From assembly GCA_947623795.1 (NCBI GenBank), contig CANQHS010000001.1:1-31024 (forward strand): 31,024 nucleotides of DNA. The letters are read 5' to 3'. Of the stretch, positions 1,913 through 11,761 are shown piece after piece. The translations under genes and the position numbers were made by a program. The notes beneath the pieces were generated by a model that was not told the DNA's origin, made no database searches, and saw only the letters and a program-made list of their open reading frames with translations. This stretch comes from an uncultured Clostridia bacterium. GTDB taxonomy: Bacteria > Bacillota > Clostridia > Christensenellales > UBA1242. Numbering within the stretch: position 1 is the first letter of the stretch; each line of letters starts with the position of its first letter.

Positions 1913-2404
1913 ATGATTGATATTTATGACAGTGAAGCACTTGTCAAGTGCTATCGTATGCTAAACAAAAAATGTAAAGCTATTGATAAGTTTATTGCAA
2001 ACCATGCATTATATTTTGGCGCCGGCTCGGAGGAATATGGTTCACTTGATATAATTAATAATATTATAGACCTTATGACAAAGAAAAATCAACTAATTAA
2101 TTTAAAAGTTATTCTAGATGGGGCGATAAATTCTCTTGATGTTAGGGACAAGAAAATTCTTTATGTCAAACTGAACTATCATGTGTCTATGGAGGATTTG
2201 TGCGAATTTCTAAATATGAAGCAGCGCACCGCATTTAGACGCGTTGAACACGCATATTTGAGCTTAACCGATGCACTTAACAATTCAAAATACATCGACA
2301 AGCTAATTTCTATTATGCAAAAAGAAATGTGGATTAGCGAAGTTAAAGATCAAGTTAAAGAAAAACATTTAAATTATAAAAAGGTGGATATCAGTAGTCT
2401 TTGA
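1913..2404 (+). CDS. ArpU/RinA-like phage late transcriptional activator (sigma-region-4-like HTH), 163 aa
   Basis: RBS AAGGAG at 1901-1906 favours ATG 1913 over the track's TTG 1859. Coiled-coil centre followed by INSLDVRDKKILYVKL...SMEDLCEFLNMKQRTAFRRVEHA (sigma4-like HTH); positioned upstream of a terminase as in Firmicute phages. Confidence 0.55.
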   Translation: MIDIYDSEALVKCYRMLNKKCKAIDKFIANHALYFGAGSEEYGSLDIINNIIDLMTKKNQLINLKVILDGAINSLDVRDKKILYVKLNYHVSMEDLCEFLNMKQRTAFRRVEHAYLSLTDALNNSKYIDKLISIMQKEMWISEVKDQVKEKHLNYKKVDISSL

Positions 2405-3152
2405 TTTCCTTATTGGGTGTCTTTTTGTGGTCAGCAATAAGTTTGCTGCCTTTTATAACTAAAAACACAAAGACGAGCGCTGGGATGGATAGAATTGCTA
2501 TTATTATTGCTGTTGTTTTGTTTTCGATTGGCAAACTATTAATTTGTTCGGCGATTTCAAAATTTGGCGGGTCAATATATGCCACCAGTTCGCTATTTTC
2601 GTTCCACGATACGGGTTCGCCATATCCGTCATCACAATAGTCTGCATAAACATATCCAATATGTTCAAAATCTGTCGTGTATTTGCAAAAAAACCAAATG
2701 TTCGGCCGCTCATCCACCTTTGCTGTTCCAAATATTTTGCCAATAAAGGTTATATTTCGTGAATTAGAAGATATTGTGTCCAAAAGTTCAGCTTCTGCGC
2801 TAGGGCTAGCTCGCAAATCTCGGCTGTCCTCATTGAACACTCTAAATTTAACATTGGAAAGAAAAGCGTTTTCTGGCGTTCCAGCAACTGCCTTAACACT
2901 TTCCTTTTTTATATAGCCTTTAAATTCCATATAGTTCGCTTCATAAAAAATTTCGTTGTAGCTATTTGTTAGTTCAACAAAGTAAGTTTTTGGCACTATA
3001 AAGTATTTATTATTTATATCATTGTCGTCAATAGGTTGCCGATATAGATAAACATTGTCCATCATCACCCGTGCATAATAGGTTATGTTGGATGAAGCAT
3101 AGGCACAAAGCGTGGGTTGAAAAACCAATGAAAATATAAGCAAAATAATCAT
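2391..3152 (-). CDS. Secreted, C-terminally membrane-anchored protein with probable SH3b-like domains
   Basis: N-terminal signal peptide (IILLIFSLVFQPTLCAYA); SH3b-like segments (VYLYRQP..FYEANYMEFKGYIKKE; DLRASPS..WFFCKY..IGYVY); C-terminal TM (AIIIAILSIPALVFVFLVI) followed by a basic tail. Overlaps the 3' end of 1913..2404 convergently by 14 nt. Confidence 0.55.
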   Translation of the reverse strand: MIILLIFSLVFQPTLCAYASSNITYYARVMMDNVYLYRQPIDDNDINNKYFIVPKTYFVELTNSYNEIFYEANYMEFKGYIKKESVKAVAGTPENAFLSNVKFRVFNEDSRDLRASPSAEAELLDTISSNSRNITFIGKIFGTAKVDERPNIWFFCKYTTDFEHIGYVYADYCDDGYGEPVSWNENSELVAYIDPPNFEIAEQINSLPIENKTTAIIIAILSIPALVFVFLVIKGSKLIADHKKTPNKEIKDY

Positions 3153-3158
3153 AAAAAA

Positions 3159-3167
3159 ATTTTATCA
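3159..3167 (-). promoter_or_regulatory. Extended -10 element 6 nt upstream of ATG (leaderless transcript candidate)
   Basis: Minus strand reads TG-A-TAAAAT-tttttt-ATG; no Shine-Dalgarno sequence. Confidence 0.45.
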
Positions 3168-9051: not shown

Positions 9052-9606
9052 ATGCAAGTTATCGACATTATGAAGCAAGCAACAGAACTATTAAGTTTGA
9101 CGGATGAAAATGAAGTTTTAAATAAGCTAACAAAAGAAAATGAAAGCGAATTGGATAGCCAAGATGTAAAAAGATTGTTTACGATTTTTAAATTGATGTT
9201 AAACGATTTTTGCACAAATTATACGCCACTATGTTCAACACAAAATATAAAAGTTGTGGACAATAATTTCCCAATTAAAGACATTGTAAATTTTTATAAA
9301 ATAAAAAATATAAAAGACGGAAATCGAATTGTAAATTATAAAATTGTTAATAAAAATATTGTTATTAACAATGGTGAATATGTCGTGAATTATTATAGTT
9401 TGCCAAACATTAATTCGTTTTTCGATGAACTAGATTTCTTATCAAGTTTGTCGCCTGAAGTATTGGTGTTTGGATTATGCGCATTTTATTGTTTGTCTGT
9501 TGGCTTGTTTGATGAATTTAAAATCTATAATGAAAAATATAAATCTAGAGCAGAGGCTATTAAAAATTTAAAAATTTTTGAAATGCCACAAAGGAAATGG
9601 CAATGA
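9052..9606 (+). CDS. Putative head-tail adaptor (P22 gp4 / T7 gp11-like), 184 aa
   Basis: AAGGAG RBS fits ATG 9052 rather than the track start 8995. Helical N- and C-termini with a beta-rich middle; sits before a nozzle-sized gene. Confidence 0.45.
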   Translation: MQVIDIMKQATELLSLTDENEVLNKLTKENESELDSQDVKRLFTIFKLMLNDFCTNYTPLCSTQNIKVVDNNFPIKDIVNFYKIKNIKDGNRIVNYKIVNKNIVINNGEYVVNYYSLPNINSFFDELDFLSSLSPEVLVFGLCAFYCLSVGLFDEFKIYNEKYKSRAEAIKNLKIFEMPQRKWQ

Positions 9607-10982
9607 AGTCAATAAAAATAAAAAATTTTAATTCTAATGGATCTGACATAAAAGTGGATAAATTTTATAATTTTTACCCACAAATTTCATTGAAACCTGT
9701 TTTTTCGGTAAAGCCGGTTGTTTTCCCCGAATATGTAGATTCAGATGTAACAAAGGAATTAACTTATGAAGACTTTAACATTTTAGGCGTTTCCTCTTTT
9801 AAAGAACATTCCCTCAAAAACAATGAAAATTTGTATAGAATTTTTATCTATGGAGATGATGGCAAACTCTATATAAATCAACTTTTCTGTGGTATATATG
9901 GACTTTATTGGTTATATGATTTGGCATTTGAAAGTGCACCAATATCAATGCCATTTAAAAACGAGGATACCGATGCAATCGTTTTGGCCAGCAAAGAAAA
10001 GATGGTTATTTGGAAATCAAATTATTCGCCATACACGATAAAAAATGTTCCGGTTATCACAAGTATGTGTATGAACGATGGCGTTTTATTCTGCACCATA
10101 ACTAAGCCCGCATTTAAAATATGGTATGCAACAGATTTAAACGCAGAAAAAGTTGGCCAAATCTCAGCTAATTCAGGATACATTTCATTGGAAGACGAAC
10201 TTGGCGATGCTCGCAAAACTATTGCTTTCGATGGCGATGTTTTTGTGTTTAGAGATTATGGAATTTCAAAAATCAATTATTTGCAAAACAGCATAACCGT
10301 TAGCCAAGTTTATGCATCAAACAGCCGAATTATTGCAAACAGTGTTGCCGCTTGTGGAAATTCAATTTTCTTTTTAACCCTTGACGGAATCTATTCCTTT
10401 AATGGTGTAAAAGTAAATAAATTAGATGTTGATATCATGAATTTGCTCACAAGCACAAATCCAAATGCAGTTGCTTCAAGCCTTGGCAATTATTATTATC
10501 TTGCGCTAAATTTAAACTATGGCGAATCAAATAGCTCTCAAAACAATTCAATAATAATTTTAAATGTTGTGGATTCAAGTTTTCAAATTATTCGCGGATT
10601 AGACGTGTTAACATTTTATCCACTAAAAACTGACGTCTTTGAAAAAATGCTTGTTGTTTTTAATGATAACAAAAAAAGAATTTTTGAAATAACGAATGAG
10701 GAGACGGAATTCTATAACGATTTCGATAAATCCTACACAACAGAAAATATTTTTGAAGATAACAACACAAAATTAGTTACAAGATTTTTAATCGATTCGT
10801 CAAAAAATGTAACATTTAGTTTGATAACTGACGAGGGCAAAACTGTTTCTTTCACAACAAAAAAAGATGGCATATCAGAATTTAATTTTCGCAAAAAACT
10901 ATCCAATGCAAAGCTTGAAATAACTTCAAATTATCATCCCGCTTATGTGAATTCAGTGGAGATAGATTATTATGACAATTGA
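9603..10982 (+). CDS. Putative nozzle / tail tubular B-like beta-propeller protein, 459 aa
   Basis: ATGA overlap with the previous stop; repeated short beta-strand blades (VLFCT, VFVFRDYGISKI, IFFLTLDGIYSFNG) and LGNYYYLAL, as in P22 gp10-like neck proteins. Confidence 0.45.
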   Translation: MKSIKIKNFNSNGSDIKVDKFYNFYPQISLKPVFSVKPVVFPEYVDSDVTKELTYEDFNILGVSSFKEHSLKNNENLYRIFIYGDDGKLYINQLFCGIYGLYWLYDLAFESAPISMPFKNEDTDAIVLASKEKMVIWKSNYSPYTIKNVPVITSMCMNDGVLFCTITKPAFKIWYATDLNAEKVGQISANSGYISLEDELGDARKTIAFDGDVFVFRDYGISKINYLQNSITVSQVYASNSRIIANSVAACGNSIFFLTLDGIYSFNGVKVNKLDVDIMNLLTSTNPNAVASSLGNYYYLALNLNYGESNSSQNNSIIILNVVDSSFQIIRGLDVLTFYPLKTDVFEKMLVVFNDNKKRIFEITNEETEFYNDFDKSYTTENIFEDNNTKLVTRFLIDSSKNVTFSLITDEGKTVSFTTKKDGISEFNFRKKLSNAKLEITSNYHPAYVNSVEIDYYDN

Positions 10983-11085
10983 TTTCGAGATGCTCAAGCG
11001 ATTTAATATTTATTATCAGTATTTGCTACACTTAAAAAATAAAAGGAGCAAATATGAATTGGAAAAATCGTTTAACAAATTATAA
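10972..11085 (+). CDS. Possible 37-aa small protein bridging the nozzle gene and holin
   Basis: GGAGA RBS 9 nt before ATG 10972; MTIDFEMLKRFNIYYQYLLHLKNKRSKYELEKSFNKL*; overlaps both neighbours; below the ORF-track cut-off. Confidence 0.3.
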   Translation: MTIDFEMLKRFNIYYQYLLHLKNKRSKYELEKSFNKL

Positions 11086-11761
11086 TTTTTGGGTGTCAAT
11101 TTTTAGTGCAATAATTCTTATTTTGCAAGCTTTAAAAATTGATTTAGATTTTATTTATGTTAACGAAATTGTTACTGCTGTGCTAGGTTTGCTTGTAGTA
11201 ATTGGAATAATAAATGATCCAACAAAAAGTTCCAAAACTAACGAAAAAACACAAAGTGTGAGTGATAAAGAAGCCAAAAGCGAAAATGCTGAAAACAACG
11301 AAAGCAAAAATGAAAATTTGCTGCCCGAAAGTGATGTAAACAAACAAGAAAACGCAATTCCCACTGAGCAACAGGATGAAGATTGTGATGTTTCTGTTCA
11401 AGATAATCTATCGTCTGCTGAAATAGAAAATTTAGTTGAAGAAAATTCCATTGAAAATTCATCTATGCCAAATGAGGATGGATCCAACATTGAAGAAAAA
11501 GAGTATGAGAATTTTGAGGATTCAATTGAAGAAACAAACGAAAACAACTTTGACGAAGGGACGGAAATTGAAGAAGTTCAAAAAAATGGACTTCCAATTG
11601 AAGAAAACGTCTCCGCAATTGTTGATGAAAAAAGTGAAAGTCAAGAATTGCAAATTCAAGAAGAAACTTCTTCAACAATCGATGATGAAATTGATTGCAA
11701 AATTGAAGAAAAAAGTCAATCGGACAACAACGCTTCCACAAATGTTTTCAGTATTGTATAA
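11054..11761 (+). CDS. Phage holin (phiLC3-like, 2 TM) fused to a ~178-aa acidic low-complexity tail
   Basis: Residues 1-57 (MNWKNRLTNYNFW...GIINDPT) match the NWK.R..N..FW...G...DPT holin pattern; the rest is E/N/S/D-rich; AAGGAG RBS. Confidence 0.75.
   Translation: MNWKNRLTNYNFWVSIFSAIILILQALKIDLDFIYVNEIVTAVLGLLVVIGIINDPTKSSKTNEKTQSVSDKEAKSENAENNESKNENLLPESDVNKQENAIPTEQQDEDCDVSVQDNLSSAEIENLVEENSIENSSMPNEDGSNIEEKEYENFEDSIEETNENNFDEGTEIEEVQKNGLPIEENVSAIVDEKSESQELQIQEETSSTIDDEIDCKIEEKSQSDNNASTNVFSIV

Follow-up and report, generated by a model that had tools for sequence, protein, structure and literature searches.

A domesticated podovirus-type packaging, head and short-tail module in Christensenellales chromosomes, a candidate gene transfer agent

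Comparison with described systems

Gene transfer agents (GTAs) that have been well studied are few, and most are from Alphaproteobacteria. Here we describe a block of about 10 kb at positions 1913-11761 of a 31,024-nt stretch from an uncultured bacterium of the family UBA1242, order Christensenellales (contig CANQHS010000001.1; the whole stretch is called the window, and all positions are its coordinates). With its promoter region (about 1760-1890) and closing terminator (11760-11787), the block probably represents the anciently domesticated remnant of a P22/SU10-type short-tailed phage, which is now a chromosomal gene set of Christensenellales and makes GTA-like particles. Domestication is strongly supported, and there is good support for vertical inheritance and for selection that keeps a DNA-packaging particle intact. 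The best-supported mechanism is that of a GTA, in which induction, random packaging, release and delivery would follow each other, and "candidate GTA" is the right strength of claim. An earlier note made from the sequence alone had called the block a head operon stripped of all selfish modules. The head genes and the packaging motor are there, and genes for replication, integration and lysogeny are absent, but a regulator, a putative TerS remnant and a minimal short tail are encoded as well.

UBA1242 (Candidatus Onthoplasma and relatives) consists of uncultured gut bacteria with genomes below about 1 Mb, which have lost most biosynthesis and kept sporulation genes (PMC12306168); the phage genes of the module are unmentioned in that paper. 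In a literature search we found no published description of the module in UBA1242 or Christensenellales.

FpGTA of Faecalibacterium prausnitzii is a podovirus-like GTA-like element in gut Firmicutes (PMC12946183, Nat Commun 2026). Its operon I (10.5 kb) encodes a TerS without DNA-binding domain, TerL, portal, scaffold, capsid and short-tail proteins, and its second operon baseplate, fibre, receptor-binding protein, holin and endolysin; the particles (40 nm, DNA of about 8.5-9 kb), their DNA and their proteome were shown experimentally (PMC12946183). We located the FpGTA I locus (L111) in F. prausnitzii ATCC 27768 and compared it by tblastn and hhalign. Both systems are host-fixed operons of about 10 kb in gut Clostridia, near-ubiquitous in their host group and free of integrase and replication genes; TerL, a P22-type portal, scaffold, capsid, short-tail proteins and a TerS (putative here) without DNA-binding domain occur in both, and the 626-aa protein of FpGTA weakly matched the tail nozzle described below (hhalign E 3e-4). 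However, TerL identity was 23%, the capsid gave no tblastn match and an hhalign probability of 0.4%, and a capsid query of five Faecalibacterium genomes found nothing. Orthology was rejected, as only TerL was weakly similar and the capsid was not; the two are analogous products of separate domestications of related podovirus kinds. Further differences are that the TerS-like gene lies 3' of terL in the module here, that no counterpart of the second FpGTA operon was found, and that the module spans an order whereas FpGTA spans a genus; particles were demonstrated for FpGTA, while the module is known from genes alone. FpGTA, the first GTA of gut Firmicutes, was published only in 2026, and the module is a separate and far more widely inherited candidate.

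The FpGTA study also reported GTA-like packaging in two Christensenellaceae metagenome-assembled genomes (MAGs), QANA01 (about 6.3 kb) and HGM11616 (about 4.1 kb), and the responsible genes were unidentified there (PMC12946183). We could not tie these MAGs to the module. Tentatively, and with somewhat more doubt than belief, we propose that the module is the machinery behind the 4-6 kb packaging of Christensenellaceae in human stool, an order-wide, LexA-triggered, podovirus-derived GTA independent of FpGTA and RcGTA, and near-core even in UBA1242 genomes of about 900 genes.

Like RcGTA of Alphaproteobacteria, the module was domesticated long ago, has been passed on vertically within a large clade and is under purifying selection. 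Further resemblances are a TerS (putative in the module) lacking the specificity domain (loss of the DNA-binding domain has been reported for RcGTA TerS) and a dedicated sigma-like activator, GafA in RcGTA and a candidate named sigL here. An influence of LexA on GTA production has been reported in R. capsulatus and D. shibae. Unlike the module, RcGTA resembles a siphovirus, its head-tail module being of HK97 type; it has extra fibre and lysis loci and is regulated through CtrA and quorum sensing without a direct LexA box on the activator; no sequence relationship exists between them. PBSX of Bacillus subtilis is likewise an SOS-inducible, host-fixed defective phage of a Firmicute that packages host DNA, and the BhlA/XhlA-type holin partner that accompanies the module in sister families of UBA1242 resembles the lysis cassettes of PBSX and SPbeta, but PBSX is a myovirus-like killing particle with a contractile tail, of about 28 kb and more than 30 genes, confined to few Bacillus species. 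The podoviruses P22, SU10 and Pa223 share the portal family and the adaptor and nozzle folds with the module, and Jasmine shares the order TerL, two small open reading frames (ORFs), portal, scaffold and capsid. In contrast, free podoviruses have genomes of 42-47 kb that also encode tailspikes, ejection proteins, an endolysin and functions of replication and regulation, none of which is present here, and a capsid of 28% identity.

Distribution, inheritance and selection

The earlier note had preferred domestication to random decay, and had named presence in a single strain at a variable locus, or a ratio of nonsynonymous to synonymous substitution (dN/dS) near 1, as findings that would speak against it. 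A whole-genome search found the capsid gene in 382 of 401 UBA1242 genomes, among them 281 of the 290 high-quality ones (97%), and in 58/58 genera. It is mostly single-copy, a few genera having two matches per genome, and nearly all listed UBA1242 capsid matches were without internal stops. TerL was present in 114 of 119 high-quality UBA1242 genomes (40/40 genera). Over the order, the capsid gene occurred in 139/298 high-quality genomes and 63/144 genera; some families have it close to fixation, and in others it was not found.

Relatives of the capsid were detected in at least 157 species-representative genomes, and the loci of 80 of these species were retrieved for comparison of synteny and ORF length. 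The order sigG-pdaB-ssb-sigL-m253-terL-o83-o71-portal-scaffold-capsid-o108-adaptor-nozzle (genes as listed below) was identical in nearly all 80 loci, and the junction with sigG-pdaB-ssb on one side and tRNA-Gln or host genes on the other recurred in dozens of species. No ORF shorter than 85% of the median length was found for TerL, capsid, o108, adaptor or nozzle (medians 474, 393, 108, 186 and 476 aa); portal and scaffold were shorter in 2/80 loci. Two loci from another genus of the same family (L147 and L150) start with o83-o71-portal, terL, sigL and m253 not being adjacent; TerL lies elsewhere in genomes of that genus (e.g. G052), so the module is split there.

Stretches of 16 kb with the capsid gene in them were compared for 40 genomes, which belong to 12 GTDB families. 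The core order was kept in all 12 (UBA1242 and 11 other Christensenellales families), and the host flanks differed between families and were conserved within each. In a maximum-likelihood tree of concatenated TerL, portal and capsid (43 rows, 1499 columns), all 12 families formed clades, 11 of them with Shimodaira-Hasegawa-like approximate likelihood ratio test (SH-aLRT) values of at least 97% and the family f18 with 92%; five rows were labelled f1 from shared locus context, not from a GTDB code. Family labels changed 11 times on the tree, the minimum possible, versus a mean of 32.4 for shuffled labels, and none of 200 shuffles was as low. The tree comparison that the earlier note had suggested thus gave congruence with the GTDB families.

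Median dN/dS values (Nei-Gojobori, 15 non-overlapping close species pairs) were 0.04 for TerL, 0.05 for o71, 0.06 for portal, 0.06 for capsid, 0.09 for o83, 0.13 for scaffold and 0.21 for o108 among packaging and head genes; 0.10 for nozzle, 0.10 for sigL, 0.10 for m253 and 0.13 for adaptor among tail, regulatory and membrane genes; and 0.05 for the host gene pdaB. The medians of the 13 genes analysed thus lay within 0.04-0.21. These ratios are approximate because dS was mostly 0.5-2, but all are far below 1. Intact genes, vertical descent and low dN/dS agree with domestication as the note had preferred it, and vertical inheritance with purifying selection across a host clade is one mark of a GTA.

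The reading as a cryptic prophage in decay, or as one part of a temperate phage that is split and still active, is already contradicted by these data, and we give it a next to negligible chance. The genes are of phage origin and an integrase lies elsewhere in the window (29362-30645), as such a reading would have it; but the integrase belongs to a separate element at tRNA-Lys that has att repeats of its own, the ORFs of TerL, capsid, adaptor and nozzle were untruncated throughout 80 species, dN/dS is far below 1, the prevalence is 97% with co-divergence at the family level, and no close free-phage relatives were found. Neither strain-variable presence together with lysogeny or replication genes nor accumulating pseudogenes, the marks of a prophage, were observed.

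Gene content

Window annotation used an ORF listing with Pfam, PHROGs and NCBIfam. The features of the module and its flanks are as follows.

3-215: SigG C-terminus, 5' host flank
342-1106: pdaB, PdaB-type deacetylase, 5' host flank
1118-1738: ssb, clostridial single-stranded DNA-binding protein (SSB) with two oligonucleotide-binding (OB) folds; host gene, NCBIfam PRK05813 above cut-off
1726-1746: terminator following ssb
1774-1787, plus strand: LexA (Cheo) box AGAACATTTGTTCT, within the sigL promoter region, as read from the sequence
1859-1888: promoter TTGACT-18-TATACT, 3' of the LexA box
1913-2404 (ATG at 1913), plus strand: sigL, sigma-70 region-4-like putative late activator, 163 aa; phrog_36, phrog_3512
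2391-3152, minus strand: m253, membrane protein of 253 aa; by hydropathy a signal peptide, an SH3b-like ectodomain and a C-terminal anchor
3186-3229, plus strand: candidate late promoter, conserved non-coding block 5' of terL
3237-4661, plus strand: TerL, large terminase with ATPase and nuclease, 474 aa; Terminase_6N E 8e-14, phrog_2 E 1e-33
4666-4965, plus strand: o83, putative TerS core without N-terminal helix-turn-helix (HTH), 83-104 aa; probable ATA start at 4666, first ATG at 4714
4934-5149, plus strand: o71, zinc ribbon with four cysteines and a basic tail, 71 aa; packaging/head accessory
5139-6986, plus strand: portal of P22 type, 615 aa; P22_portal PF16510 E 2e-23, phrog_156 E 3e-38
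6991-7539, plus strand: scaffolding-like protein, helical and acidic, 182 aa; from composition and its position between portal and capsid
7548-8723, plus strand: major capsid protein, 391 aa; phrog_14242 E 7e-56
8724-9050, plus strand: o108, head completion or decoration candidate, 108 aa; conserved in 77 loci
9052-9606, plus strand: head-to-tail adaptor by fold match, 184 aa; start ATG 9052 (corrected from GTG 8995)
9597-10982, plus strand: tail nozzle/hub by fold match, beta-propeller, 461 aa
11054-11761, plus strand: holin with two transmembrane helices and a long acidic low-complexity tail; PF04531 (Phage_holin_1) over residues 1-58, phrog_297, TIGR01598
11760-11787, plus strand: intrinsic terminator closing the operon, a 12-bp stem followed by a T run
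11884-11958: tRNA-Gln, 3' flank

Most plus-strand genes adjoin directly, share up to about 30 nt with the next gene or are separated from it by a few bases, longer gaps being found between terL and o83 (52 nt, to the first ATG) and between nozzle and holin (71 nt). TerL with intact ATPase and nuclease motifs, portal, scaffold, capsid, holin and terminator are all present as the earlier note had described them, and no direct repeats bracketing the block were detected in a repeat search of the window, matching its claim that no att repeat flanks the genes. Its claim that all genes are co-oriented fails at m253, which is on the minus strand, and the first gene of the block (1913-2404) is the sigma-like activator, which has to be counted as part of the module.

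The flanking genes (SigG C-terminus, PdaB, SSB and tRNA-Gln) are host genes as had been claimed. ssb was considered as a phage gene on the basis of a phrog_26861 match, and rejected since it passes the cut-off of the clostridial SSB equivalog PRK05813; it adjoins the module in UBA1242 and in 1/8 loci sampled from the sister family f8. On the 3' side of tRNA-Gln follow host genes for a histidine phosphatase, a GT8 glycosyltransferase, a cardiolipin synthase, large surface proteins and an ATP-binding cassette (ABC) transporter.

The position of the module beside sigE-spoIIGA-sigG-pdaB, the adjacency to sporulation genes in most UBA1242 loci, and retention in extremely reduced genomes that still have sporulation genes (PMC12306168) would suit a capsid and packaging machinery co-opted for a cell-internal or sporulation-linked role. 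We regard such a role as improbable, as the module has other host surroundings and no sporulation genes beside it in the 11 other families, a LexA box is the control element that was identified, and the holin and tail nozzle point to release of a virion-like end product.

Packaging motor

The Walker A motif GGNRTGKT, the Walker B motif WFDEE and the nuclease Asp motifs of TerL were invariant in 92 orthologues from 12 families. In o71, cysteines C12, C17, C39 and C42 were invariant in 21 species.

The o83 family clusters with proteins of 150-228 aa from sister family f4. These homologues are encoded directly 5' of terL, carry an N-terminal HTH and match the TerS family phrog_309 (E 2e-26 to 3e-15). 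The profile of the o83 type found in the window aligned with residues 55-148 of the f4 TerS, 3' of the HTH (hhalign E 3.6e-5, probability about 71-72%), and outside f4 no HTH was found in the o83-type gene, which there lies 3' of terL. With moderate confidence from this profile comparison, o83 would be a TerS reduced to its core, the HTH for DNA recognition having been lost. Such a TerS may be the most direct hint of non-specific packaging in the locus, and without a specificity domain the packaging of host DNA would most likely show no sequence preference.

In family f4 (TerS homologues L130:3961-4647, L131:10964-11416 on the minus strand, and L151:4162-4650), the loci are without sigL, m253 and o71 neighbours. 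This arrangement is more phage-like and possibly ancestral.

The conserved coding sequence of o83 extends at least 14 codons 5' of the first ATG, GTG or TTG (window 4651-4714; orthologous position in L002, L021, L037, L040, L042, L060 and others). A conserved ATA is the only plausible start in the window and about 10 other species. It lies 9-10 nt past a GGAG(G) Shine-Dalgarno sequence and a few bases past the terL stop, which suggests a near-cognate start with termination-reinitiation coupling to terL.

Head, tail and lysis genes

AlphaFold2 (AF2) models were built on orthologue alignments and searched against PDB with Foldseek. The nozzle model (predicted local distance difference test score, pLDDT, 90.7) matched the Pa223 tail (9nwi_Y, E 3e-18, TM-score 0.73), the SU10 nozzle, P22 gp10 (TM-score 0.61), Sf6 gp8 and VP1. 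The adaptor model (pLDDT 87.5) matched the head-to-tail adaptors of KHP30, Pa223, SU10 and phiM1, and weakly T7 gp11. By these modelled folds the 461-aa and 184-aa proteins are a tail nozzle and a head-to-tail adaptor, so that uncharacterised ORFs could be named by the fold search that the earlier note had suggested; the two "neck-like genes" of the note exist, and their folds make them adaptor and nozzle. With both present, a minimal short tail that would seal the portal is encoded besides the head and the packaging motor, and the combination of P22-type portal, adaptor and beta-propeller nozzle is that of a P22-like podovirus structural module. Prediction of an adaptor-nozzle complex gave a score of 0.00, which is evidence neither way.

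PDB profile searches for the nozzle and o108 returned nothing usable, and o108 had no family, PDB or Atlas matches. The scaffold-like protein had no family match, and its gene is conserved in 70 loci. m253 is kept between sigL and terL order-wide; its Atlas neighbours are SH3_3 clusters, to be taken as a lead only.

No further structural ORF lies between nozzle and holin in the window. Most sister families have, after the nozzle, a DUF7934 protein (PF25588, about 300-370 aa; e.g. L146:12608-13627, L061:14887-15903, L130:13426-14676), a BhlA-family holin-like protein (PF10960) and a Phage_holin_1 holin, in some with an extra ORF of 350-620 aa preceding DUF7934; the DUF7934-like region of family f4 is fused with a LysM domain. 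DUF7934 is a candidate for a new endolysin or tail-tip protein, and an Atlas search with it recovered its own family only. Among 54 loci of near relatives of the window, the holin was found in 46, BhlA in 10 and DUF7934 in 2. No genuine DUF7934 was found elsewhere in 24 genomes of the genus; a weak match in another part of the genome of the window (C43) was rejected as a lysin, being an ORF of about 827 aa whose N-terminus is Clp-type chaperone-like by eye. The window's genus thus keeps the regulator, motor, head, adaptor, nozzle and one holin.

Regulation

The LexA-box palindrome AGAACATTTGTTCT, of the Firmicute (Cheo) type, is located between the ssb terminator and the 1859-1888 promoter. 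The motif ATA[G/A]AACAnnTGTTCGA was found 5' of orthologous sigL in about 41 of 47 related loci, and the retrieved loci (1.28 Mb) contained 19 exact GAAC-N4-GTTC sites, 16 of which were at this sigL-upstream position. Exact LexA boxes also precede sigL in seven families (f8, f11, f16, f18, f24, f27 and f38), and lexA is encoded in the genome of the window and in four relatives.

sigL stands at the head of the module in 12 families. Sigma70_r4_2 was matched by 20/26 of its orthologues (best E 5e-10), and its profile matched region 4 of SigW and FliA in PDB. On the 5' side of terL, the pattern TGRCA..GTTTRGG..GTTTTRGTGTAAATTA is conserved in 30 species despite near-saturated synonymous sites, and 3186-3229 is therein a candidate late promoter that may be read by sigL. 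Judged from these motifs, DNA damage would induce the late operon by way of LexA and sigL.

Absence of replication and integration functions

Genes for integrase, replication or lysogeny were found neither in the block nor, in 120 loci, in the 6-10 kb on each side where the contig allowed, which leaves no early or replication genes nearby that could complete a split prophage, a possibility that the earlier note had raised against its own reading. Phage structural and packaging genes in the chromosome without replication, integration and lysogeny functions are the composition expected of a GTA. The note had also reported no integrase; this is right for the block, while an integrase and an excisionase are encoded in the window at 29163-30645 in a separate tRNA-Lys element. 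The integrase at about 29.4 kb was examined as part of a split prophage and rejected, because att repeats at tRNA-Lys belong to it.

A search of 50,697 phage records with the capsid gave at best 28% identity, to Arthrobacter phage Jasmine and relatives, which are podoviruses of 42-47 kb. In IMG/VR 40 contigs matched the capsid (L159-L196 among them). Those reaching beyond the capsid gene have the gene order of the module, several with pdaB/ssb flanks, and were therefore read as host fragments; exceptions were one distant (34%) 60-kb contig and one 44-residue fragment. Virus catalogues and detection pipelines thus count a domesticated host module as virus.

A head and packaging set without fibres or lysin, of which fragments are classed as viral by IMG/VR, may also recall a helper-dependent satellite, similar to capsid-forming phage-inducible chromosomal islands (PICIs), that makes its own heads, borrows fibres, lysis or replication from a co-resident phage and spreads horizontally. 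The chance of this is very small. Integrase, primase or replicase, repressor and att sites are absent; the position is fixed within families, with strict congruence with host families; and the module is near-universal and mostly single-copy. Satellites need self-specific packaging, whereas the putative TerS here is without a recognition domain. The integrase, att sites, replication module, helper-responsive repressor and variable insertion that define capsid-forming PICIs and satellites were thus not found.

Proposed mechanism and function

In the GTA reading, DNA damage would inactivate LexA, as the conserved LexA box suggests, and the sigma-like activator (1913-2404) would be de-repressed. 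The activator would then turn on the late operon at the conserved promoter-like block 5' of terL. Scaffold and capsid protein would build a procapsid on the portal, and TerL would fill it with DNA, assisted by the HTH-less TerS core and perhaps by the zinc-ribbon protein. Adaptor and nozzle would seal the portal, and the holin would aid particle release. The particle would be a host-owned vehicle for chromosomal DNA, unable to propagate itself.

Several observations weigh against this reading. The lineage is known from genes alone; among the sequencing runs searched, the locus was found only in the source rabbit-gut metagenome, and in no RNA or virome run. The LexA box is exact in only about one third of close relatives, and the TerS homology of o83 is based on a moderate hhalign score (71% probability). 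As the nearest free phages have genomes of 42-47 kb, the 10-kb module could possibly fit into the head as a whole. We found no receptor-binding protein, tail fibre, needle/plug, ejection protein or recognisable endolysin in the window's genus, from which DUF7934 and the BhlA-like gene of sister families are also missing. P22-like tail needle/plug, tailspike or fibre and ejection proteins are likewise lacking in the window, and the sister families have extra ORFs (DUF7934 and the proteins of 350-620 aa). Delivery to recipients is therefore doubtful, which gives room to a domesticated particle that transfers no genes, either an SOS-induced defective particle like PBSX or a device for altruistic lysis and DNA release. 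The benefit would be the killing of competitors, release of DNA or nutrients for kin, or removal of damaged cells. The retained holin and a LexA box suggesting SOS induction, as in PBSX, fit such a particle, and PBSX packages host DNA without delivery (PMC12946183). However, podovirus heads have no contractile killing device, and TerL, portal, TerS core, adaptor and nozzle are under strong purifying selection; this selection on the motor and sealing genes argues that a DNA-filled, sealed head is the selected product. We judge a particle without gene transfer to be unlikely, though deserving serious attention.

If the module is indeed a GTA, it could be the main route of recombination and DNA repair that offsets genome decay in the reduced, metabolically dependent UBA1242. 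Its retention in genomes of about 1 Mb that have shed most biosynthesis implies a strong benefit. Christensenellales are a heritable, health-associated gut group, and the module is found in many of its families. With this gene set one can ask whether uncultured gut anaerobes commonly exchange chromosomal DNA by means of capsids, how a late activator comes under the direct control of an SOS signal, and how the TerS specificity domain is lost during domestication.

Other elements in the window

The separate element (3.7 kb) is inserted at tRNA-Lys(CTT) within 27140-30958, 15 kb from the block with host genes between. It encodes a metallo-beta-lactamase (MBL)-fold protein, an excisionase (29163-29381) and a tyrosine integrase (29362-30645), and is bounded by copies of the tRNA-Lys 3' end at 27140-27194, 27303-27357 and 30865-30919. 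A further tRNA-Lys fragment is repeated at 30919-30951 and 30991-31023. Two tandem direct repeats of 80 nt (28519-28598 and 28637-28716, 80% identical) between the MBL gene and the excisionase gene may serve as iterons or as arm-type sites.

On either side of the ABC transporter, in a genome of only about 1 Mb, a very large protein that is secreted or anchored is encoded, at 15176-19792 (1538 aa, no family match) and at 22418-26536 (1372 aa, Big_2 Ig-like repeats); neither was found in related loci, and both may be adhesins of a bacterium that depends on a host or partner.

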